Source: Candidatus Hermodarchaeota archaeon
GTDB lineage: Archaea; Asgardarchaeota; Heimdallarchaeia; Hodarchaeales; Hodarchaeaceae
Assembly (NCBI GenBank): GCA_048886185.1
Contig: JBHLKY010000012.1
Coordinates: 67,981 to 99,980 of the forward strand
Length of the DNA: 32,000 bases
Reading direction: 5' to 3'
Under the pieces are notes generated by a model. It did no database searches and was not told where the DNA came from. It saw nothing but the letters and a program-made list of their open reading frames with translations. This document shows, piece by piece, positions 1-12,327 of this stretch (its first letter is position 1; every line of letters begins with the position of its first letter). Position numbers and translations under genes: made by a program.

Positions 1-3000
1 TCATCTGGTCGATGGCTTCAACAACGGGTTCTTTCCACGGTGAAGGTGGGAAGCGCTTCAGAATCTCACTATCCATTTCCAATTCACGAGTTTCTTTCAT
101 AACGCTAGCCATCCTAAATATTGTTTCAGCAACCAAGGATTTGCTATCCACACGATCAAAAACCGCGAGAGCTTGTCCGTACAAATTTTTAGTCCTAGTT
201 GGATCACCCTGATAGTATGCAGCAGTACCATCCTCTACCAGTTTCTGTGCACCAGAAATTGCTCTTATATATTCAAAGTAATCTATATAATTCGATTGCA
301 CGATTTTTAACGCTGTCTGGTAATCTGGCGCTTTCAAACGCGCAGTGAGGAGCATTTGTTTCTCTCTTCTCCGTTTTAACATTGAGAAAACAGCTACAAT
401 GCTTATCAATAGAAGTAATAATCCTACCAGTGCATGGAAAATGCTGAAACTTAGTAATGGAACACTCCAGAAGTTTTTTGGGTTGGTTCCCGCCCGGAAT
501 TCATCAACATTCATGACCCAATCCCCATCTGAATCAATCCATGCATCATTTGGATTAGTAGCATTAAAATCATTCTGGTATTCCCAGAGGTTAGTCATGC
601 CATCATTATCCGCATCACCACTAGCATCATTTGGATCAGAAGCGTTAAGCTCGTGGATGGCTTCGTACTGATTGACCATGCGGTCTTCATCCTTATCAAG
701 TAAAGCATCATTGAAATTTGTTGCATCGAGGCCGTGATAGTACTCATAGAGATTATTCATCAAGTCATTATCCTCATCGAGCCATGAGTCATTAATCTGG
801 GGATTAAGCCCGTGTTTGTATTCAAAGTCATCAGGCATACCATCTAAGTCACTATCACTCTGATTAGCCCAGCTCCCGTAGTGGAACTCCTGCAAGTTAG
901 TCAAACTATCTCCATCCTTGTCTCCAACTCCATCATCGTGCCATGGATCCAATCCCATCTGGTATTCATACAGAGCTGTAATATAATCGCCATCGCTATC
1001 AGTATCATTATCGGGAACAGCAGGATCAGTACCAGATAGGTGTTCCCATCCATCAGGCATTCCATCGCCATCAGAATCTCTTTCTAGGGGATTGCTTCTC
1101 CGGAAATACTCCAAGCTGTTCATGAGTCCATCATTATCCTGATCATTAAACTTATCCCAGAAGTCAACTGGATCAAGGTTGTATTCAGATTCCCAATTAT
1201 CAGGCATTCCATCCAGATCTCCATCTGGATTTGCATTAACGTTCCAGAGTTTGATATTACCATTATTATCACTCGAGACCAGAGTATTCCCATCAGGAGA
1301 GAAATCGATTGAAAAAACGGAAGCAGCAGGGATATAAATCGTTTTAATTGGTGATTTTTCTCCATTGGTCAAGTTCCAGAGCTGGATTACGCCTTCAATA
1401 TTCCCTGCAGCTACCAAATCTCCACCAGGTGAAATCGCTACTGAACTTATCGCGCCGCCTTGTCCTTCCAGCTTTGTAAAGTTCCCGTTTGTAACGTCCC
1501 AGATCCTTACAATGCTATCTGAGCCACCTGAAGCCAAGTGCTCCCCATTGGGCAAAAAAACTACAGATCTAATATATGCTTCGTGATCATTCAAGGTTCT
1601 TATTGGTTGCCTACTTGTGATATTCCAAATAATGATGGTAGAATCCCAGCTTCCTGAAGCCAATAACGAACCATCAGGAGATAATGCTAGGCTACTAACA
1701 TCATAACTATATCCTTCTAGGGATGGTAATAATTCTTTTTCATCAGTAACATTCCACAGCCTGATAGCATTTTCTGGGCGATAGCTTCCAGACATTACAA
1801 CCGTTCCATCAAGCGAAAAAATAACGGGCCATACGGCCATAGTATTAGCATGATGTGCAAGAGGAGAAGCTGGGGGGGGTAATTCTATTCCCTCGGTCAC
1901 ATTCCAGAGCCTAACAGTAGTGTCCCGGCTACCTGAAACTAACAGCTTACCATCAGGTGAAAAGGCAACTGAATGAACTGCAGCATCATGACCTGCCAAT
2001 TCAAACATTTTTTCATAAGTAGTAACATTCCAGAGGATAATGTTATTGTCATAGCTCCCTGAAGCAAGAGTCTGGCCATCAGGAGAAAAAACAGCTATAT
2101 AAACGGTACTCTGATGACCAATGAAGTTTCCTTCTTCAGCTCCTCTTGCCACGTTCCACAACCAGATAATACCATCATAACCGCACGCTGCTATCATCGA
2201 TCCATCAGGTGAGAAAGCTACGGCATCTACTACTCTGGTATGACCTGCGAAGACCTTAATTTGCTCTTTAGAGGTGACGTCCCACAACCTGACAGTTTCA
2301 TCCCAGCCACCTGTTGCTAGCAGCTTCCCATCAGGTGAAAAGTCGATTGCATCCAATCCGATTCCATTAACGTGTCCTTCCAGAGTTTCAGGATCCCTGC
2401 TCTCCAAATCATATAACCGCGTATCAGCTGCTCCTGCAAATGTACCCGTCCAGCAGCCAGTGGCAAAATGTTTCCCATCAGGTGAAAAGCGGATAGCTGT
2501 AGGTCGTTGAGAAAGATAGGTTTCACTATCTAGCTTCCATCTTGTCATATCCCAGAGCCTGAAATAATGATCATCCCCACATGACGCTAGTAACTTTCCA
2601 TTAGGGGAAAAGTGGACTGAGTTTATCGCTACACTTGCATGATGAGAAAAGGGTGTTTCAATTTCTGCCCAGTTATCTGTTCTCCAAATCTTTATGGTTC
2701 CAAAATCGCCACCTGAAGCAAGTAATTTACCATTAGGGGAAAAATCAACAGATAGTACATTCCCAAGAAAACCGGGTAGGATCTTTATAACATCTCCGTT
2801 TTTAATGTTCCAGATAACAATGTTTGTGTCCACGCCACATGAAACCAGCATCTTACCGTCAGGAGAAAACGTTAAATCTTTTATTGCACCAGTGTGCTTC
2901 TCTAATTTCCTTATTTCATTTCTCGTTTCCGTTTCCCACAATTTAACAACACGATCTTCCCCACCTGTTGCAATAATCTTTCCGTCAGGCGAGTAAGCAA

Positions 3001-3322
3001 CAGCAAATAGCTTGCCAGAGTGTGTGTTTATTCCATACACCGTTTTTCCATAACCTGGGTTGGGACGGTTTAAATCAGCTATTTTTTCATTCCCCGTATT
3101 TCCCGCTGTAAAGGTACCCGTGGGAATGGATAGTAAATCTTGCTTTCCTGTTCTTTCTACTCCCTGATGGTCACTTGCTTTACCTGCTTCTCGTTCGTAA
3201 TTGCGGTCTTGAAAATAATAAGGGAAATCTACACTAGTATGGTAGAATGAACCAGAGAAAATTGGTATCGAAATGGTTGAAACTAGAAGTAACAGCAAAT
3301 AAATTTGTTTTTGGTGAACCAC
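1..3322 (-). CDS. Receptor-like type I membrane protein: signal peptide, 14 WD40 repeats, 10 DxDxDG Ca-binding (TSP3-like) repeats, TM helix, cytoplasmic TPR-like region (C-terminus beyond the window edge)
   Basis: Hand translation of the minus strand gives an open frame from GTG at 3322 (MVHQKQIYLLLLLVSTISIPIFSG...) to the window edge with no stop, about 1107 codons. An in-frame TAG lies just upstream of the GTG. The ORF track omits it, presumably because its stop lies outside the window. Confidence 0.93.
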   Translation of the reverse strand, partial: MVHQKQIYLLLLLVSTISIPIFSGSFYHTSVDFPYYFQDRNYEREAGKASDHQGVERTGKQDLLSIPTGTFTAGNTGNEKIADLNRPNPGYGKTVYGINTHSGKLFAVAYSPDGKIIATGGEDRVVKLWETETRNEIRKLEKHTGAIKDLTFSPDGKMLVSCGVDTNIVIWNIKNGDVIKILPGFLGNVLSVDFSPNGKLLASGGDFGTIKIWRTDNWAEIETPFSHHASVAINSVHFSPNGKLLASCGDDHYFRLWDMTRWKLDSETYLSQRPTAIRFSPDGKHFATGCWTGTFAGAADTRLYDLESRDPETLEGHVNGIGLDAIDFSPDGKLLATGGWDETVRLWDVTSKEQIKVFAGHTRVVDAVAFSPDGSMIAACGYDGIIWLWNVARGAEEGNFIGHQSTVYIAVFSPDGQTLASGSYDNNIILWNVTTYEKMFELAGHDAAVHSVAFSPDGKLLVSGSRDTTVRLWNVTEGIELPPPASPLAHHANTMAVWPVIFSLDGTVVMSGSYRPENAIRLWNVTDEKELLPSLEGYSYDVSSLALSPDGSLLASGSWDSTIIIWNITSRQPIRTLNDHEAYIRSVVFLPNGEHLASGGSDSIVRIWDVTNGNFTKLEGQGGAISSVAISPGGDLVAAGNIEGVIQLWNLTNGEKSPIKTIYIPAASVFSIDFSPDGNTLVSSDNNGNIKLWNVNANPDGDLDGMPDNWESEYNLDPVDFWDKFNDQDNDGLMNSLEYFRRSNPLERDSDGDGMPDGWEHLSGTDPAVPDNDTDSDGDYITALYEYQMGLDPWHDDGVGDKDGDSLTNLQEFHYGSWANQSDSDLDGMPDDFEYKHGLNPQINDSWLDEDNDLMNNLYEYYHGLDATNFNDALLDKDEDRMVNQYEAIHELNASDPNDASGDADNDGMTNLWEYQNDFNATNPNDAWIDSDGDWVMNVDEFRAGTNPKNFWSVPLLSFSIFHALVGLLLLLISIVAVFSMLKRRREKQMLLTARLKAPDYQTALKIVQSNYIDYFEYIRAISGAQKLVEDGTAAYYQGDPTRTKNLYGQALAVFDRVDSKSLVAETIFRMASVMKETRELEMDSEILKRFPPSPWKEPVVEAIDQM
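465..1231 (-). repeat. 10 tandem acidic DxDxDG-hxx-xxE calcium-binding repeats (prokaryotic TSP3-like)
   Basis: e.g. DGDLDGMPDNWE, DSDGDGMPDGWE, DSDLDGMPDDFE, DADNDGMTNLWE, DSDGDWVMNVDE; period about 24-27 aa. Confidence 0.88.
1241..3022 (-). repeat. 14 tandem WD40 repeats (probably two 7-bladed propellers)
   Basis: Repeats such as HSGKLFAVAYSPDGKIIATGGEDRVVKLWE, HDAAVHSVAFSPDGKLLVSGSRDTTVRLWN and HEAYIRSVVFLPNGEHLASGGSDSIVRIWD; 14 counted by hand. Confidence 0.92.
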
Positions 3323-3454
3323 TTTTTTCTATCTTCCTGAACAGCTGTTGTCTTGATAATGATGAAAAAACCTGGTCAAACAGGTATTCTAAGAAAAAGG
3401 AGGGGATCTTGCGAGCACCTCACTGTAGCGGTAACCATTGACCACGCTGGAGTG

Positions 3455-5320
3455 CTAGTCACGTTTCCTCCTGCGACTTGTTAAGACGATAGGCACTACC
3501 AATACTGCTGGGGCCAGGAATGTAAATCCAGGTACACCTGGAGGAGGAGTACTCGTAGTAGCTGTAGTTGTAGTTGTCGTTGTCGAAGTATCGTCACGGG
3601 TAGATGGGCACGGCCAGGTGATATCCAAGTCGGGATCGTTTCCTCGAAAATAAGGCCATGTGTACCGTTGAATCCCGTCCGGTGACCAGTTCAAATAAAA
3701 GTCCGCCCCGAAATTAGCATTTGAGGTTGCTTTGATAGTATAAGAAAACGTTACCTTTTCTCCCGTGGCTATCTCTAGCCCTGGGCTATATACAATATAA
3801 TTCTTGATTGTATTTGGAGCGCTCAGTATCCATTTATCGATAGTGCTACCCGTCCAGTTTAGCTCAGCAATTTTTCCGTTAATCTTGAAATCCTCCACAG
3901 TCAGGTGATCGAGCGAATCAACACCTGCACTAAATACACAAATATGAAAAAAAGGGCTAGGATGGTTAGGGACAACTGCGTTACCCAGTCCGAAGTATGC
4001 CTTCTCTTCAACTGAATCTGCCCAGTAGAGCAAGTGGTTTTCGCTACCTAGCTGGAAAACCTTTGATTGCCCGTTAACGGTATGGTTCCTGATCCACCAT
4101 GATGGATAATCCATTTCTAAAATAGCATAAACGTGAATTTCAGCTGTACCATCAATTATGTTCGCATCATACTTGCGCGTACTGCTACCTGCCCACTTCA
4201 CGTTGAAAATGTCTGTTTGATCACCATCACCGTTCAAGTCCATGCCTAACTCACTCTCGTTAAGCGCTCCCGCTCCGAGGGGTAAATCCATTAGATATAA
4301 GAGATCTTCCTGTGATGATTGCACTGTACCTGCCGGTATCGGGAGACCGTAGTTGATGAAAGTCCCATTGAAGTTAAGCTCACCTGTTTTTCCTTCCGTG
4401 TAAGAATAATCAAGTGTCCAAAGAAATGGTAGGTCCAGGGCCTGAGTCGGTACTGGTATTTCGATAAGTTTCCAGTTTTTTCTTGCGTTACCATCGGGTG
4501 ACCAGTTCATGAACAGACCTAGGTACGCTGTCGTAGCTTCGCTAGCCACGAGGATAAATGATAGACTTACATTTTTTCCTGCATCCAGCTCGAATGCTGG
4601 GCTTGAAATGATATACCGAGTCGTGGTTGACCAGTTTCCTTCCGAGTAGACTTCCCTCGTTCCAGAATAGTTCTTTTCCACGAGATTATTGTCGATCCTC
4701 ATGTCAACCACGCTTATACTCGAAGTGATCTCCAGTTCCAGGTGTGGACAAGAATGTGTCTTTATAACCGCTCCAAATCCGAAACGGGCTGTATTGTTGT
4801 CTGCTCCGTAAAGCACATGTTTCTGATTGCCGAGCTGGAATAGTTTTGACATGCCATTGATATCGAAGGTCTGATTGCTCCACGGGTTATCAATTGGTCC
4901 TTCCCACAGGGAATATGCGCGTATATCCTCAGCACTTCCGTTTATAACCGCATCCCATGGGCGGTTAGCGTTGTGAAGCCATGTTACGTTATATATTGTC
5001 GTCTTAGCCCCATCCCCATTCAGATCGTGATCCATGATGGTTTCATTTAACATTCCCGTCCCGTTATCAAGCACCAGTTCGTAATAGAGGTTTTCCCACG
5101 TGATTGACACATTACCTGATACTGCCGCAGCGCTACCGTTGTTCTTAATCCTTGTACCTATATAGTGCAAACCTGGTTGTATTTCCCACGGGTCGAGATC
5201 TTCTACCAGCATGAAATCAGGTTCATCATCCAGTGTTGATAGTCGTGAGCTGGAAATAACGCTCACCGAGCTGAATAAAATGGATGTTATGAGTAAAGAC
5301 AGTAATAATATCCTTTTCAC
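3455..5320 (-). CDS. Secreted cell-surface glycoprotein with two copies of an unknown domain, a Thr-rich linker and a PGF-CTERM sorting signal
   Basis: N-terminal signal peptide (MKRILLLSLLITSILFSSVS), many N-x-S/T sequons, and C-terminal TSTTTTTTTATTSTPPPGVPGFTFLAPAVLVVPIVLTSRRRKRD (PGF, hydrophobic helix, basic tail). Confidence 0.88.
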   Translation of the reverse strand: MKRILLLSLLITSILFSSVSVISSSRLSTLDDEPDFMLVEDLDPWEIQPGLHYIGTRIKNNGSAAAVSGNVSITWENLYYELVLDNGTGMLNETIMDHDLNGDGAKTTIYNVTWLHNANRPWDAVINGSAEDIRAYSLWEGPIDNPWSNQTFDINGMSKLFQLGNQKHVLYGADNNTARFGFGAVIKTHSCPHLELEITSSISVVDMRIDNNLVEKNYSGTREVYSEGNWSTTTRYIISSPAFELDAGKNVSLSFILVASEATTAYLGLFMNWSPDGNARKNWKLIEIPVPTQALDLPFLWTLDYSYTEGKTGELNFNGTFINYGLPIPAGTVQSSQEDLLYLMDLPLGAGALNESELGMDLNGDGDQTDIFNVKWAGSSTRKYDANIIDGTAEIHVYAILEMDYPSWWIRNHTVNGQSKVFQLGSENHLLYWADSVEEKAYFGLGNAVVPNHPSPFFHICVFSAGVDSLDHLTVEDFKINGKIAELNWTGSTIDKWILSAPNTIKNYIVYSPGLEIATGEKVTFSYTIKATSNANFGADFYLNWSPDGIQRYTWPYFRGNDPDLDITWPCPSTRDDTSTTTTTTTATTSTPPPGVPGFTFLAPAVLVVPIVLTSRRRKRD

Positions 5321-5579
5321 CAGTTGTTCACCTCTAAAGATGATGATAAAAAGATTTGAACTCCACTCGCTATCTAATTATTGTTAATTATTATGGGAGT
5401 ACCAGACTTGTATATTAGTTTTTCTTGTCTAGAAAATATTGTCATTCACATTCAGACTCTCACATTTACCTTCCAATTGTTGAAATAGCATAAGTAGAAA
5501 ATTTTTACTTTCCATGACTGCCGAATTTTAACGGAACGGGCTTCCAAGTTTAACTTTGAGGCTAGATTTTTAAGTGACT

Positions 5580-5613
5580 AGAGTAAAGATTCCAGAATTC
5601 GAATCTTTACTCT
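5580..5613. other. 13-bp perfect inverted repeat (hairpin or operator)
   Basis: AGAGTAAAGATTC (5580-5592), 8-nt loop, GAATCTTTACTCT (5601-5613). Function unknown. Confidence 0.6.
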
Positions 5614-5659
5614 CCTGTAAGAAAGTTTCAACAATTTAGAAGAAAAGGAAGCTGAATTT

Positions 5660-6403
5660 CTAAACCTGAATAGAAAATTCATGTGCCCTTCCTCTTGACC
5701 CAACACGACGTAAGATTCCTAATCTACATAGACTATAAGTCAAACATCCTGAAATTCGACGGATCCTTCGTAAACCTCCTTGAATTTCTAATCCTGATGC
5801 GATATCACGATTAGTAAAGGTATCTGGTAATCCTTTAGGCAAAATGTGGATGAAATCCTTTTTTGAGAGGAATTTTTTTGTTTTATGAACACTTAGTAGA
5901 TCTCTCTGGACAATTTTGTATCTCCGCCTCATACTACTCCTCCAAAAACCAATACTTTCTTTTAGAACATGTTCTTTGATAAATAAGATGTCAAAATCCA
6001 TTCTTTGAGGGATAAATTTCAATTTAAAAAAAACCAATTTTTCAAATAAAGTATAAATATCACCCCCTTTGTTGTAATGGCTGATTCCAATAGTCTTTCC
6101 TTGAGTCATTCGAGTCACTTTTTGATTTACTACAATAGGATGTACAATAACTATTTTCAAATCTGTTAATTGGATTAGTTGCTTAATCTTTTCAGAGAAC
6201 CTACCTCCAAAATTTGACCGATGGATTTCAAAAGCTGTTCTATGTTCCTCATTAAGAATATCTACTCGGTATTTTCGTCCATTGGCATGTAAAACAGTTT
6301 CCTCCGTACCTCCTACCTTCATCAAATACAGATTCTTCAGCTTCTGATGCAACCATGTTTGATTGCTTTGAAAATCCACTGCAGTACAATTTACATTTTT
6401 CAC
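5660..6403 (-). CDS. Putative PD-(D/E)xK-family nuclease-like protein with a C-terminal winged-helix-like region
   Basis: LHQKLKNLY...ETVLHANGRKYRVDIL...AFEIHRSNF fits the E..D..ExQ/K restriction-like pattern; C-terminal LPDTFTNRDIASGL...LGILRRVGSRGRAHEF. The exact start is uncertain. Confidence 0.6.
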   Translation of the reverse strand: MKNVNCTAVDFQSNQTWLHQKLKNLYLMKVGGTEETVLHANGRKYRVDILNEEHRTAFEIHRSNFGGRFSEKIKQLIQLTDLKIVIVHPIVVNQKVTRMTQGKTIGISHYNKGGDIYTLFEKLVFFKLKFIPQRMDFDILFIKEHVLKESIGFWRSSMRRRYKIVQRDLLSVHKTKKFLSKKDFIHILPKGLPDTFTNRDIASGLEIQGGLRRIRRISGCLTYSLCRLGILRRVGSRGRAHEFSIQV

Positions 6404-6706
6404 TGATATTCACTTGGATTCGAGAGGGAGAGTGTAAAAACATCCATGTCATGGTAATTATGTTAATTAAGTTGATGTGTAAGAATGGGTTTAAATGGCG
6501 TCAGGAACCAAAATTCTATAGATTTTTCCTTTTATGTATCTCCTTTTTCAAGCTAAGAAGAAATGGCTATTCCCTTGTGGTTGATATCTTTGTCTTATCA
6601 ATAGCTTTCGTTTCGATAAGGAAGCTTAAGAAGAGGGAATAGGTAAAATTTTGTTTCATACTTTAGAAAGAGGAGCAGGGGATGTGTATTGTTATTACTT
6701 TCAATT

Positions 6707-8530
6707 TTAAACAATCTGACCATCTTTCATATTTACAATCCGGTCTGCAAATTTTGCCATCTCTTCATCATGGGTAACAATAACAAACGCGATACCCTTC
6801 TCATCGCAAAGCTTTCGGAAGTTTGACAAGACTTGCTTGCCAGTTTCACTATCTAAATCTCCTGTAGGTTCGTCTGCAAAAACAATTAATGGATTATTGA
6901 TACATGCTCGAGCTATAATAAGACGCTGTAATTGTCCTCCAGATAGTTTTGTTGGATCCTGCTTTGAATATTCTACCAATCCAAGACTCTCTAATAATTC
7001 GTGTACTCGGTTATCTAGATGCTTTATATTCCCAGCCATTATTGCTGGGAGGGCTACATTTTCATACACTGTAAGCCGAGGATCTAGAATGTACTGTTGA
7101 AAAACAAAACCAATCTTGTGTCTTCGAAAATCCGAGAGTTTATTGTCATTCATCAATGAAATGTCAATTCCCTCGAGAAAGACTTTTCCTCGGTCTGGGA
7201 CATCTAAACCAGCCATAATATTTATGAGAGTCGTTTTTCCTGATCCTGATGGTCCTAATACTGCAACAAATTCTCCCTGCTGAATCCTCAGATTCGCACC
7301 TCTGAGTGCGTATACTGTGCTGTTAGAGGGGCGATAAGTTTTATGGAGACCAATTGCTTCTACTATGGTTCCTTTTTCATGCTTATGGATTACATTATCT
7401 TGCGATGATTCTAGTGCTACCCCTCCAGATTCAGGAGATAAAAAAGCAATATCTATGAATCGATCAGCCCAGATTTTTACTTCTCTTAATTGAATTGGTA
7501 ATTCTATTATTGAAGAATGAAAATCTTCAAGATTAACTTGGATTTTACCTTGTTGAACATCTTTTTGGAGATTCTGGATTGATATCTTAAGATCTTTTAA
7601 GGACTTGATATTCTCCTCGAATCCAGTTTTTAACTCAGAAATGTTTTTCCCATTATTCACACGGACTCTAATTTCCTTCCCGAATCCATTCAGTAATTCT
7701 ATCTCTTCATAAGCAGATGATTGAATCTCGTTAATCCTTGTGATTTGGCGAATGATTGTTCTGAGTGCATCAATACCTCCTACTAAATCTCCCACAAGAA
7801 TTCCGAATGCTTCAGCTGCTAGACCGGGGTCAGATATTGAAATGACATTTGATCCTGCAAAGGAATCTTTAACATTATTCACTCGTTTGGTAATGTCATT
7901 TAATAATTGACTCAAAGATCTTAAGAAAGAGTGCCCAAAGTTAAGGATTAACAGTTCGTCAAAAGCATGAAGTGCCGAAGAATCATTCCTTTTATCATAT
8001 TCTCGATGAAATGTGCCATCATGTACAACTATTCGATCCTTTCCTTCTTGGTTGAATGCCCAAAAAATCATCCAAGAACGATCTACTATATAATCAATGG
8101 CTTTTTCGATAAAATGAACCATTTTGAGATTTTCTTGAATAATTACCTTTTCAGGATTTGAAGGACAATTGGGTGTTGTTTTTAGAAATTTTGCTAAAAT
8201 TTGCTGAGCTTCACGTTCAGAACGATTACATTTAGTTCGGGAGTGTAAAAGCTTTAAAGCTCTTTCAGCATACTCTTGGTACAGAGAATGAATAGTTTCT
8301 TCAATGTCGACTCTTGTTTCAAATTCAATGCAATATTCAGCTTTACAATGACCGTTTGCTAGCATGAAAGTATTAAACTCACCAGTTTTTGGTTTTGATT
8401 TCCCAATACAGAGTTTTTTTTCCAAAACTTTTTGCAATTTCCTCTCTAGTTTATCATTTCCTTGTTGATCTAATTTATCAATAAGAAATCCAGTTATTAA
8501 TTCATTATTCAAATTATTAATAATCCTCAT
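6707..8530 (-). CDS. LolD/MacB-family ABC ATPase fused to a ~385-aa unknown N-terminal region
   Basis: C-terminal ~220 aa carry Walker A GPSGSGKT, Q-loop GFVFQ, signature LSGGQLQR, Walker [12 protein letters not shown] and H-loop VTHD. Its ATG overlaps the TGA of the upstream ATPase at 8530. Confidence 0.9.
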   Translation of the reverse strand: MRIINNLNNELITGFLIDKLDQQGNDKLERKLQKVLEKKLCIGKSKPKTGEFNTFMLANGHCKAEYCIEFETRVDIEETIHSLYQEYAERALKLLHSRTKCNRSEREAQQILAKFLKTTPNCPSNPEKVIIQENLKMVHFIEKAIDYIVDRSWMIFWAFNQEGKDRIVVHDGTFHREYDKRNDSSALHAFDELLILNFGHSFLRSLSQLLNDITKRVNNVKDSFAGSNVISISDPGLAAEAFGILVGDLVGGIDALRTIIRQITRINEIQSSAYEEIELLNGFGKEIRVRVNNGKNISELKTGFEENIKSLKDLKISIQNLQKDVQQGKIQVNLEDFHSSIIELPIQLREVKIWADRFIDIAFLSPESGGVALESSQDNVIHKHEKGTIVEAIGLHKTYRPSNSTVYALRGANLRIQQGEFVAVLGPSGSGKTTLINIMAGLDVPDRGKVFLEGIDISLMNDNKLSDFRRHKIGFVFQQYILDPRLTVYENVALPAIMAGNIKHLDNRVHELLESLGLVEYSKQDPTKLSGGQLQRLIIARACINNPLIVFADEPTGDLDSETGKQVLSNFRKLCDEKGIAFVIVTHDEEMAKFADRIVNMKDGQIV

Positions 8531-9231
8531 CAGTTACCATCCTCTACAACTTGTCCATCACGAAGGCGGATAATCCGTTCACATTGTTCTCCAATCCATT
8601 CCGAATGAGTCACAAGGATAAGTGTTTGACGATTATCGGTATTTAATCGTTTTAACATTTCCATAAGATCTTCTGAGGTTATCGAATCTAAATCTCCTGT
8701 CGGTTCATCCCCTAGAATGATTACTGGTCTAGTAATTAATGCCCGAGCTATTGCAACTCGCTGTTGTTGTCCTCCTGAAAGTTCAGGGGGAGAATGATAG
8801 ATTCTATCCCCTAACCCAACCTCTCGTAAAACCATTGTAGCTTTTCGTGTTGCTTCAGGATAGCTAACACCTTGAGCTAATAATGGAACCATTACATTTT
8901 CCAATGCGTTCATATAATCAAACAGATTAAAGAGTTGGAATACGAATCCAATATAATCTCTACGAAATGAAGTCATTTTTTCATCAGAGAACGTAGTGAT
9001 ATCAGTGCCGTTTATTTTAACCTTACCAGAAGTTGGGGAATCAAGACCTCCACAAATATTCAGCATAGTTGTTTTTCCACAACCTGATGGCCCCATAACA
9101 GCTACCATCTCCCCGTGTTTGATTCTAAGGTTGATACCTCTTAATGCATGAACCTCATTAGGTGTGTTTTCTCCATATATTTTATGAAGATCTTTAAGTT
9201 CAACAATATTTCCAGTCATTTCTTCATTCAC
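8530..9231 (-). CDS. LolD/MacB-family ABC transporter ATP-binding protein
   Basis: [49 protein letters not shown] start abuts the permease stop. Confidence 0.95.
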
Positions 9232-12200
9232 CTAACCATGATATCGAAGAGCCTCACTTGGTGGTATTCGTGCAGCAAGCCAACCTGGAACTAATGCTGC
9301 TACTATAACAGAACCTAAAATGAAAATACCATATGTTCCAACTTGAGTCCAAGGAATAATCAATTTCCAATTCACAAGATCTGTAAAAACCCAAGCAAGG
9401 TAATTCCCAGTCAAAAATCCAACGAAAAAACCTAAGATTCCCAAAAACAATAGTTCCAAAAGGACTGCTAATGAAATTGCTTTTCTAGAAAAACCTACTG
9501 ATCTCAACATACCAATTTCTCTTTTTCGTTCCTTAACAGAACGATGAGAAACAACAAGAAGGCCTATAACTCCAATAATAAGACCAGATGCGATTGATAT
9601 CTGTAGAAAATTCAAAGCATTTGCGTTTGTTGCATTTAGATGATAAAACACATCCCATAAATGATGTGCTGTGATACCATAGAAAGTCCCATCACTGTAG
9701 GCAAAGAGGGAATTTGATCCCTTCTTATTGGAAAATGTTTCAATTTGACTACTGATTTCTTCATTCTTGTCATAATCATAACCATTTGAGGTTTTCACTA
9801 GAAATTCTTTAGCTCCATAACCTAAAAGACTGAATTGTGAAGCAATTTCACTACTAACAATTATGCCAAGGGGAAATTCATTAATGCGAAGATTAAAGGA
9901 AGGAAAATAGGATAATGATCCTGCATATATCATTTCGATTAAACTACCGTTCAAAGTAGGAAAAGTTACAATATCACCGACTTCTAGGAAGTATAATCGT
10001 TCACCCAGAAACATAGGTAACCCAAATGGATCGTTTGAATCTACAGGCTCTTTTGAAGAACGATGAATCTTTTGACCTGCCAAGAATGCCTTCCAGAATA
10101 TTGTTGCTTCTTCGCGTGCTTGATCACGATCTTCCAATCTGTTGATCATTGACATGTGAGTATAATAAGGCAGAAGCTCATCAAACACAAATGAATAAAG
10201 CGGTTCTCCATCCCTTTTAAGGTAGGAGGAAAAATCAAGACCAACAAGTTTCGAGTAGAAAATGTCATTCTCTGGAGAAATTTCGTCACTCGGCCCCCTG
10301 AATGGTAATACTCCTCCAGTTAACAAAGGACTAATTTGTGTAATATCAATAAATTGATCTTGAAGAATTTCAGAGTAGTTAACAGAGGATAAATTGAAGG
10401 GTGTTTGAGACTCAATAACAAGAGAGACCCCAGACATGTAGTACTCCCACGTATGACTTGAGCCAGAAACCTGTGAAACAGCGTAAGAGCCTATAAAGAA
10501 GTTCAAGGAAAGAATAACAGCGAAAGTAGCGAAAGTAAGAATAGCTCGTGATTTTCTTGAATTGATATAGCGAGTAGCAACCAGTCCTGTCGCTCTGGTC
10601 CTATTATACAACGAAAAACATTTTCTCAATCCAGTGGTTAGTGTCTCCAAATTCGCGCCTACTATTATAGTTGCACCTATAACCGCAGATAATAGACCAT
10701 TTAAAGCAATACTATTTGCGTTTCCTCCCTCGTTAGCCCAACCTACAGCAACCTGAAAACCCCAAACAGTAAGCATTATTAGTAAAAAACCACCAATAGA
10801 TAAACTGAGTCGTCGATAACGTATCAATCTGAAACTAAGGAAAATAAGTCCTAAACCAACGTAGAATAAAGCTTGGAAATTTGCAGCCGCTTCCTCATCT
10901 ATATTATGGAATCCTTCTGGAGCGTAGAATGGCTTTCCTTGCTGAATGAGATCAACAAGAGTCATAGAACCTAAAATTATTATTAGTCCACCAATTATGA
11001 GCGGCCATATGGGCTTTTTGCTATTTATGGAAGAAATGACATTTTTTGATTTAGTTCCGCGTACGATTTCAATTATTGAGATCCCCCGAGCTCGTAATGC
11101 AGGGATCATACCTGTGAAAAAAGAGAGACCAATAGCACATGTTAGAGATAATACTAATGTCCCTGGGACAACGACTACGTCAAAAATCGACTGTGTCATT
11201 TCAGGATTACCCATTGCTGATAGCATATCTCTACTTAAATCATTTAACCAAATACTGATACCTATTCCTAAAAGTAAACCAAAGATTCCACCTAATACTC
11301 CTGTGAGAAAGGTTTCAATTGAATAAGAAAGAAAAATGTCTCGTTTCTTTGCACCAATTGCTCTCAACATTCCAATTTGTTCTTCACGTTCCTCCATGTT
11401 CATTAGTTGAATATTTGTAATGAGTAATAAACCCGCAATAACTATAACAACACCAAACATCTGAAAAGTGCTTGCTAAGCTTGAAACTCCCTCCTCAAGT
11501 CCTTCTCGATTGTTCTCTCTTATTGTAACAACACTTAGCATTAAATCTTGAAAGTTTTGATCCAAAACTGTTTCAATCTGATCCCTGGCTGCATCACTTC
11601 GTTCTCGTCCTAAAAAAGGCTTATTTTTATGGTCTTCGATTCCAATTGTTACTTGAGTAATTGGTCGATCAATACTACTTGGAATAAGTGATTGAACTGC
11701 TTGTTCGCTCATCAATATTCGTCGAAAGTCGTTAGGATTACCTGTTCTTCCATATTCGTTATAGCTATAGATATTTTTAACCGTTATATTATGAAAAAAC
11801 GGATTTCCATTATCATCACGCAAACTTATTGTTACCTGAGCGCCAATTCCAGCATCTAATGAGTCAGCCAATTCTGGAGAAATTATCATCTCATTTTCTT
11901 TTAATGATGTAACCTCTAGTTTCTCTCCAGTTGAATTTGAATATATTTGTCCCCAAAAATTTCCATCGAAAGATGTCCCAAGTGTTTCGATCCTCACCCC
12001 TTGTTCAAATTGGCCCTTATCAGGATAATAAACAGTCGTTGAATATGCAATCTGTGGAAATATACCTTCAAAATGTGAGCTGAGTCCTTGAATTAATGTG
12101 TCTGAGACATTTTGAGGAAAATATATCTGATTTACCGAAAAAATAATGATATCAGTATTTCCAAATCCTTCAACTAATATTTCTTTGTAGTTTCTTTCAA

Positions 12201-12327
12201 CGGTGTCACTAAGGATTTGTGTTTGGACAACTAATGAAATTCCAAGTGCAATAACAAATGCTGTAAGGCAAAAATTTCGTTTCCGTCGACTAATACCTCT
12301 TAATGTATATCTAAAGGCATAATTCAC
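9232..12327 (-). CDS. ABC3 (MacB/FtsX-like) permease with two fused halves
   Basis: Two FtsX-type motifs (EREEQIGMLRAIGAKKRDI; ERKREIGMLRSVGFSRKAI), two large extracytoplasmic domains and multiple TM helices. Confidence 0.92.
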   Translation of the reverse strand: MNYAFRYTLRGISRRKRNFCLTAFVIALGISLVVQTQILSDTVERNYKEILVEGFGNTDIIIFSVNQIYFPQNVSDTLIQGLSSHFEGIFPQIAYSTTVYYPDKGQFEQGVRIETLGTSFDGNFWGQIYSNSTGEKLEVTSLKENEMIISPELADSLDAGIGAQVTISLRDDNGNPFFHNITVKNIYSYNEYGRTGNPNDFRRILMSEQAVQSLIPSSIDRPITQVTIGIEDHKNKPFLGRERSDAARDQIETVLDQNFQDLMLSVVTIRENNREGLEEGVSSLASTFQMFGVVIVIAGLLLITNIQLMNMEEREEQIGMLRAIGAKKRDIFLSYSIETFLTGVLGGIFGLLLGIGISIWLNDLSRDMLSAMGNPEMTQSIFDVVVVPGTLVLSLTCAIGLSFFTGMIPALRARGISIIEIVRGTKSKNVISSINSKKPIWPLIIGGLIIILGSMTLVDLIQQGKPFYAPEGFHNIDEEAAANFQALFYVGLGLIFLSFRLIRYRRLSLSIGGFLLIMLTVWGFQVAVGWANEGGNANSIALNGLLSAVIGATIIVGANLETLTTGLRKCFSLYNRTRATGLVATRYINSRKSRAILTFATFAVILSLNFFIGSYAVSQVSGSSHTWEYYMSGVSLVIESQTPFNLSSVNYSEILQDQFIDITQISPLLTGGVLPFRGPSDEISPENDIFYSKLVGLDFSSYLKRDGEPLYSFVFDELLPYYTHMSMINRLEDRDQAREEATIFWKAFLAGQKIHRSSKEPVDSNDPFGLPMFLGERLYFLEVGDIVTFPTLNGSLIEMIYAGSLSYFPSFNLRINEFPLGIIVSSEIASQFSLLGYGAKEFLVKTSNGYDYDKNEEISSQIETFSNKKGSNSLFAYSDGTFYGITAHHLWDVFYHLNATNANALNFLQISIASGLIIGVIGLLVVSHRSVKERKREIGMLRSVGFSRKAISLAVLLELLFLGILGFFVGFLTGNYLAWVFTDLVNWKLIIPWTQVGTYGIFILGSVIVAALVPGWLAARIPPSEALRYHG

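Follow-up and report, generated by a model that had tools for sequence, protein, structure and literature searches.

The window analyzed here is a 32,000-nucleotide stretch of contig JBHLKY010000012.1 from a Candidatus Hermodarchaeota archaeon (GenBank assembly GCA_048886185.1), corresponding to G000:C12:67981-99980 in a 4.84-Mb genome of 75 contigs. At its left end lies the gene for a large, probably surface-exposed protein, designated P0002, in which a predicted double WD40 propeller is followed by a repetitive stalk, a single transmembrane (TM) helix and a tail resembling tetratricopeptide repeats (TPR). Reading of the open frames gave a GTG-initiated frame at window positions 2..3322 (minus strand) that runs past the window edge. 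The stop codon was found 521 nt to the left of the window, and the full gene spans C12:67460-71302 and encodes 1,280 amino acids (aa). The in-window part (1..3322, minus strand) covers aa 1-1107, with the last 173 codons and the stop located at G000:C12:67460-67980.

The public protein collection already holds an identical 1,280-aa protein. The initial annotation, made from the letters of the window, had presented the gene as unannotated and missed by gene calling. The first part stands as far as function is concerned, whereas the second does not: the gene is real and already called, yet it carries no meaningful functional name. Its relatives, from Candidatus Hodarchaeales (Asgard), are named by NCBI as "WD40 repeat domain-containing protein" or "eIF2A-related protein", and automatic names such as the latter mislead for these genes. 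The sequencing runs listed as possible sources of the stretch are of sediment DNA only, with no RNA run among them.

Domain architecture of P0002

P0002 begins with a signal-peptide-like segment (aa 1-25; window 3248..3322, on the minus strand like all features of this gene), made up of a basic n-region (MVHQKQ), about 18 hydrophobic residues with a hydropathy peak at aa 6-25, and small residues (SGS). Of the homologues whose sequence opens with a start codon, most have a comparable hydrophobic segment at the N-terminus. The linker that follows (aa 26-94; 3041..3247) is predicted to be disordered, with a pLDDT below 35 over residues 1-60 of the AlphaFold2 (AF2) model, and is the least conserved stretch of the protein. 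The head reached 401 bits with Pfam WD40 (PF00400), for which the cutoff is 27, over 11 matched stretches, and a pattern search recognized 13 blade ends plus one degenerate blade between aa 256 and 346, that is, 14 blades. Based on the Pfam matches, the blade ends and the AF2 strands, blades 1-7 were assigned to a first propeller (aa 95-390; 2153..3040), for which the Pfam matches included beta-propeller models, and blades 8-14 to a second one (aa 391-697; 1232..2152). The AF2 model of the ectodomain (pLDDT 86.5, pTM 0.75) contains about 55 strands across aa 94-694, with a pLDDT near 90 in the propellers, and is consistent with two seven-bladed WD40 rings over aa 95-697.

The propellers are followed by a stalk (aa 698-952; 467..1231) that was delimited by repeat alignment and Pfam and consists of exactly ten repeats of the bacterial thrombospondin type 3 kind (TSP3_bac) with EF-hand-like DxDxDG....E loops. 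The repeats are 22-27 aa long, follow the consensus DxDxDGMxNxxEYxxGLNP and are invariant at D1, D3, D5 and E12. PF18884 (TSP3_bac) passes only marginally on the whole stalk (25.1 bits versus a cutoff of 25); scanned singly, three of the ten repeats match this family, the best with an E value of 1.4e-7. In the AF2 model, each repeat has one short helix (pLDDT about 90). A profile of the repeats weakly matches the EF-hand loops of calaxin and parvalbumin, and a phmmer search of the stalk against PDB sequences returned no match. From the motif, we infer that the loops bind Ca2+. Among the NCBIfam models, local matches of the repeats were obtained to the Myxococcus proteins MtsD (NF047639, 46.4 bits versus a cutoff of 800) and CglD (NF033765, 22.3 versus 400), and P0002 reaches neither of these equivalog cutoffs. 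Elsewhere in the genome, long runs of TSP3-type DxDxDG repeats are found in two paralogous giant surface proteins (C4:138703-145500 and C4:167518-174195, both on the minus strand, with frames of 2,266 and 2,226 codons), each ending in a TM helix and a basic tail of 5-10 residues, as well as in a 972-codon open frame at C39:16600-19515 (minus strand).

The stalk leads into a conserved juxtamembrane motif, FWSVPLLSFS, and a TM helix (together aa 953-985; 368..466), recognized by hydropathy, conservation and the AF2 model. The TM core spans aa 964-982, that is, window positions 377-433, and the basic stretch KRRRE comes right after it. This stretch opens the tail, which has 295 aa in total (aa 986-1280). 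The 122 residues encoded in the window (aa 986-1107; 2..367) include KRRRE, a helix pair that we call APDY and a first canonical TPR at tail residues 38-69; it is there that a profile built from 45 tails gives matches to consensus TPR proteins. Modeled by AF2 from the alignment of these 45 tails, the tail is all-helical, with 14 helices and a pLDDT of 92.5. It has no family in Pfam or NCBIfam and matches no Pfam TPR family even at E values up to 10; Pfam searches with its first 65 residues and with the N-terminal 100 aa of the protein gave nothing meaningful. A Foldseek search against the PDB retrieved generic TPR solenoids only, the best being those of LGN/Pins, Rap and SNAP; these matches are weak (E about 1e-3, TM-score 0.4), none being below 1e-3. 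Higher TM-scores (0.58-0.67) were obtained with predicted TPR_12 domains of bacterial signaling proteins (LuxR, Pkinase, CHAT, GGDEF and Rap types). The tail thus models as a TPR-like solenoid of stacked helix pairs. P14, W141 and Y281 are invariant in the tail alignment, and a complex prediction for two copies of the tail scored 0.02, which speaks neither for nor against a dimer.

The initial annotation had listed a signal peptide, 14 WD40 repeats, ten DxDxDG repeats, a TM helix at about 377-433 with KRRRE behind it, and at least 120 aa of helical TPR-like sequence, all of which were recovered; the C-terminus it had sought beyond the window edge completes a tail of non-trivial length. The possibility it had raised, that the full architecture belonged to an already assigned family, was not borne out, the architecture as a whole being, like the tail, without a Pfam or NCBIfam family.

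The APDY helix pair (about the first 50 tail residues, LxAPDYxTALKI..., without a Pfam family) was also encountered in 3-5 tandem copies in the otherwise unrelated proteins P0153, P0154 and P0164, two of which end in weak zinc-ribbon or RING-like motifs, and it may represent an unnamed small domain.

Topology and family relationships

Several features support the type I layout suggested in the initial annotation, with head and stalk outside, one TM helix, and a domain of protein-binding type inside. The basic residues at both hydrophobic segments agree with the positive-inside rule. Calcium-loop repeats also build the giant surface proteins of the same genome, with their TM ends and short tails, and relatives of P0002 carry SBP_bac_5 or NosD beta-helix domains, both known extracytoplasmic families, in the position of the WD40 head. 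In addition, N-x-S/T sequons in 28 family members number 401 in the ectodomains versus 251 expected (1.6-fold), and 24 versus 33 in the tails; as the sequences are related, these counts, like the pairing tallies given below, are descriptive and not independent. At the blade ends, W-N-x-S/T was found in 91 of 188 cases (48%) across the 28 members, while the classical W-D is retained in only 45. In P0002, five of the seven blade ends of the second propeller read W-N-x-T, and all five such ends of the protein are located there. Within the genome, W-N-x-S/T occurs at 16 of 36 blade ends in membrane-bound WD40 proteins versus none of 11 in two cytosolic ones. Based on these motifs, the propellers are probably N-glycosylated. 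Both hydrophobic segments are present in five of the seven WD40 proteins of the genome, and these five appear to be extracellular, which would reverse the usual expectation for the fold.

Three paralogues with the same layout are encoded in the same genome (C19:23587-27216, C19:6466-9909 and C7:15326-18856). An exhaustive HMMER search with the tail gave 161 representatives, which fall into two classes. The first one, with about 60 representative clusters, comprises membrane proteins in which the tail directly follows a TM helix and TSP3 repeats; P0002 and its three paralogues match the tail profile over its full length in this very setting. The second one comprises soluble TPR proteins (TPR_12 or MalT-like) with lengths of 460-850 aa, matching only tail positions of about 45-285 and in some cases fused to HisKA/HATPase (P0064) or to ArsR/MarR-type winged-helix domains (P0143, P0094). 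The initial annotation had proposed to look for the cytoplasmic domain behind other ectodomains, and it was indeed found there: besides double WD40 heads, the membrane class has single WD40 heads, NosD beta-helices (P0019, P0099, P0105 and P0133), SBP_bac_5 domains (P0017 and P0027) and heads without an assigned domain (P0016 and P0041). Comparison of the members shows that heads have been exchanged on a constant module of stalk, TM helix and tail.

Across 400 genomes of the phylum, the tail was matched over its full length (E < 1e-90) only in the GTDB genus of the window, where 16 of 21 genomes have 1-5 copies each; the phylum genomes outside this genus gave only matches resembling the soluble class. 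A further member, a distant one encoded in the Heimdall LC_3 assembly, came from the protein search. As judged from sequence, P0002 is a member of a lineage-specific, modular and unnamed Hodarchaeales family with the order signal, variable head, TSP3-type stalk, TM helix and APDY/TPR tail. Between the paralogues, the tails are 44-46% identical versus 32-39% for the propellers, indicating that the tail is constrained no less than the head.

A related arrangement was observed at C4:218540-220951 (minus strand; L008:2001-4412), where an 803-aa protein has a signal-like segment, one seven-bladed WD40 propeller, a TSP3 stalk and a TM helix, with W-N-x-S/T at five of its seven blade ends. In place of the TPR-like tail, it has one of about 185 aa that is rich in Cys and gives sub-threshold matches to double zinc ribbon and RING models. 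The presence of such a tail on the same head, stalk and TM helix suggests that tails, too, may be exchangeable.

Surface-protein genes next to the receptor-like genes

In all four TPR-tail proteins of the genome, the gene directly upstream on the same strand encodes a secreted, C-terminally anchored protein. For P0002, this is a 621-aa protein (window 3455..5320, minus strand) that contains two repeats and a Thr-rich tract and carries a C-terminal sorting signal of the PGF type; its gene is separated from the P0002 gene by 132 nt (window 3323-3454) that contain T-runs and no clear promoter. It has no Pfam or NCBIfam family, and a protein atlas search gave scores of at most 0.82, with weak leads to archaeal DUF11/CARDB-like surface proteins. 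The two repeats correspond to a domain of about 280 aa that is present twice, and each half of the protein aligns to a 354-aa, one-repeat homologue (C19:22415-23479), which precedes one of the two paralogues on C19 (C19b) with a gap of 125 nt. The other one (C19a) and the paralogue on C7 are preceded by SBP_bac_5 proteins of 642 and 708 aa, respectively, and one of the two reaches the model of the Loki-CTERM sorting signal. Next to the C19b pair, on its upstream side (C19:20476-22317, plus strand), lies the gene for a 613-aa protein with an N-terminal hydrophobic segment, a beta-rich ectodomain and a TM helix; the short helical tail of this protein contains a TPR-like motif.

The neighbors of family genes were further surveyed at 20 loci from genus-mates, two of which are cut by contig ends. 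Among the readable loci with WD40 heads outside the genome of the window, an anchored surface protein is the neighbor in 10 of 12. An anchored SBP_bac_5 protein is encoded directly upstream on the same strand at seven of the WD40-headed loci and adjacent but divergent at one more. Orthologues of P0002 with 65% and 49% identity retain the neighbor of about 620 aa, while their outer flanks differ; at locus L012, this neighbor is 65% identical to that of P0002 in a direct comparison. On the other hand, none of the eight receptors with a fused SBP_bac_5 head has an adjacent gene for such a solute-binding protein (SBP). In a tree of the TM helix plus tail, fused-SBP receptors group together in a single clade (support 100/98), as do, in a second clade, those with a neighbor of the 621-aa type (98/95); the pairing has therefore been inherited with each receptor lineage. 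An importer operon as the context of the paired SBPs was ruled out, since no importer permease or ATPase genes were found within 10 kb of the SBP-paired loci. Overall, the binding protein comes either fused to the receptor or from an adjacent gene, which is a classic signature of a functional link, although adjacency is not proof of contact.

Candidate functions, related systems and other genes of the window

Our preferred explanation is that P0002, as a type I protein with a single membrane pass, acts as a surface receptor or adaptor working with the co-encoded binding protein, for which we estimate a probability of roughly 0.6. The stalk, stiffened by calcium, would hold the N-glycosylated double propeller away from the membrane, and the propeller would dock the co-encoded anchored protein, that is, the 621-aa two-repeat protein in this copy and orphan SBP_bac_5 proteins in others. 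Occupancy could then alter the clustering or orientation of the receptor, after which the TPR solenoid would recruit one or more cytoplasmic partners. Several points weigh against this explanation. P0002 contains no known enzymatic or output domain, and no cytoplasmic partner was identified. The closest likeness of the stalk repeats is to cohesion and gliding proteins (MtsD, CglD), which fits an adhesin equally well, and a range of one genus with 1-5 copies per genome is also typical of fast-evolving adhesion families. Adjacency alone does not show binding, the pairing counts come from related sequences as said above, and the gaps of 125 and 132 nt in two of the pairs hold T-runs, so that the paired genes may not be co-transcribed. 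Moreover, no anchored neighbor is present at two of the 12 readable WD40-headed loci, L031 and L032, the latter (G070:C57:8290-20602) containing instead two tandem receptors of 1,228 and 1,236 aa (at 4190-7873 and 8118-11825 of the locus, plus strand).

The main rival is a structural adhesin or cohesion protein, in which the propellers would bind surfaces or cells, the stalk would be a spacer, the tail would anchor the protein (e.g., to a cortical lattice or the cytoskeleton), and the neighbor would merely be co-displayed, with no signal involved. We consider it unlikely on balance, while giving it real weight: the stalk resembles, below threshold, the cell-cell cohesion protein MtsD and the gliding lipoprotein CglD, TSP3 repeats build the giant surface proteins of the same genome, the family occurs in several copies over a narrow range, and Pfam and NCBIfam detect no output domain in the tail. 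A preprint on an Asgard archaeon also interprets membrane-tethered WD40 proteins as surface structures (bioRxiv 10.1101/2025.07.22.663070). However, a tail of 295 aa whose conservation exceeds that of the head is more than a plain anchor would need, and tails of 5-10 residues are what the other surface proteins of the genome have; the stable pairing with orphan SBPs, together with the fused-SBP variants, points more to ligand sensing. The "receptor or adhesin" of the initial annotation stands as a membrane surface protein to which either of the two terms may apply. The pairing could instead serve uptake, if the propeller kept anchored SBPs near an unlinked transporter as a nutrient-capture scaffold. 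SBP_bac_5 proteins (Opp/Dpp/Nik type) are indeed the partners of two paralogues and eight relatives, but the lack of importer genes around these loci, a partner of P0002 that is not an SBP, and a conserved cytoplasmic TPR domain that would be left without a role make this improbable. Finally, WD40 propellers are mostly cytosolic, and the order of propeller and alpha-solenoid recalls the protocoatomer layout discussed for Asgard proteins, so that a reversed or soluble topology was considered, with cytosolic propellers and hydrophobic segments that do not span the membrane. This seems hardly credible given that both hydrophobic segments are strong and have basic residues on the side that a type I layout places in the cytoplasm, that calcium-loop repeats lie between propeller and solenoid, that sequons exceed expectation in the head and fall below it in the tail, and that relatives have SBP_bac_5 or NosD heads at the same position. 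A protocoatomer-type protein was rejected outright, as ten calcium-loop repeats and a TM helix separate the propeller from the solenoid and the protein has a signal-like start.

Extracellular WD40 heads in Asgard archaea are not a new idea. According to the same preprint, Nerearchaeum marumarumayae has many WD40 propeller proteins with a signal sequence and a membrane anchor (bioRxiv 10.1101/2025.07.22.663070). As in P0002, a signal sequence, one or two outside propellers and a spacer precede the anchor in these proteins, which are described there as surface-tethered globular heads. Their spacers, however, are of the fibronectin or adhesin kind and the organism is from a Loki-type lineage, not Hodarchaeales, the comparison being by description and not by homology; the passages retrieved by a term search of the preprint make no mention of a TSP3 stalk, a TPR tail or a paired binding-protein gene. 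Our literature searches (Asgard or Hodarchaeales WD40, thrombospondin, beta-propeller receptors) likewise returned no account of heads being exchanged, of a TSP3 stalk, of a tethered TPR tail or of a binding protein encoded alongside.

Bacteria have transmembrane sensors that depend on binding proteins, such as LuxP-LuxQ, TorT-TorS, ChvE-VirA and MBP-Tar. The Hodarchaeales family resembles these in having an SBP beside or fused to the membrane receptor, the SBPs being orphans without importer genes. It differs in its docking domain, which would be WD40 instead of PAS/Cache or a four-helix bundle, in its output through a TPR scaffold and not an enzyme, and in the partner of P0002, which is not an SBP. 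No HisKA/HATPase or MCP domain was found in P0002 with Pfam or NCBIfam, HisKA/HATPase being present only in the soluble relative P0064. The tandem acidic DxDxDG-type loops of the stalk are shared with extracellular bacterial TSP3 proteins (PF18884; MtsD, CglD) and with the type 3 repeats of eukaryotic thrombospondin/COMP, while P0002 scores far below the MtsD and CglD cutoffs and has an unrelated head and tail. With MalT-like, TPR_12, Rap/RNPP-type and LGN/Pins TPRs, the tail shares the all-helical solenoid and one canonical TPR; unlike them, it reaches no Pfam TPR family, begins with the APDY helix pair and is membrane-tethered. The likeness to integrin alpha drawn in the initial annotation, explicitly without homology, can be kept as an analogy: both would have a seven-bladed propeller with calcium sites as the head, carried on a leg or stalk, and would couple through a single TM helix to proteins of the cytoplasm. 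Yet P0002 would have WD40 instead of FG-GAP blades, two propellers, no thigh or calf, and a 295-aa TPR tail versus a short GFFKR one. FG-GAP is absent from the 25 best Pfam families, all of them WD40-type propellers, and homology to integrins was rejected on this ground.

Almost nothing is known of how Asgard archaea sense or hold their surroundings and partners, a question that bears on models of the origin of the eukaryotic cell. Hodarchaeales are the archaea placed closest to eukaryotes, and the present family offers a concrete and testable system in this order: the head is defined, the adjacent gene probably encodes a co-receptor, naturally fused variants speak for the pairing, and the scaffold tail is conserved. 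More speculatively, and as a doubtful proposal at this stage, Hodarchaeales might use the family for outside-in coupling, with the glycosylated head reading the co-encoded binding protein or a partner cell and the TPR solenoid recruiting cytoskeletal, membrane-remodeling or ubiquitin-like machinery. If so, integrins and similar adhesion receptors would have a counterpart in prokaryotes, and the RING- or zinc-ribbon-like tail of the protein at C4:218540-220951 would fit interchangeable cytoplasmic effectors.

Other genes near P0002 were discarded as functional context. The downstream purH is unrelated and not conserved; nor do orthologous loci retain the ABC/FtsX genes farther upstream in the window, which belong to the MacB type. 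Within this last group, the 607-aa ABC ATPase at window 6707-8530 (minus strand) has an ABC_tran domain that begins only at residue 409, after an N-terminal region without an assigned family; it is accompanied by a second ABC ATPase (8530-9231) and a 1,031-aa MacB/FtsX-type permease (9232-12327).

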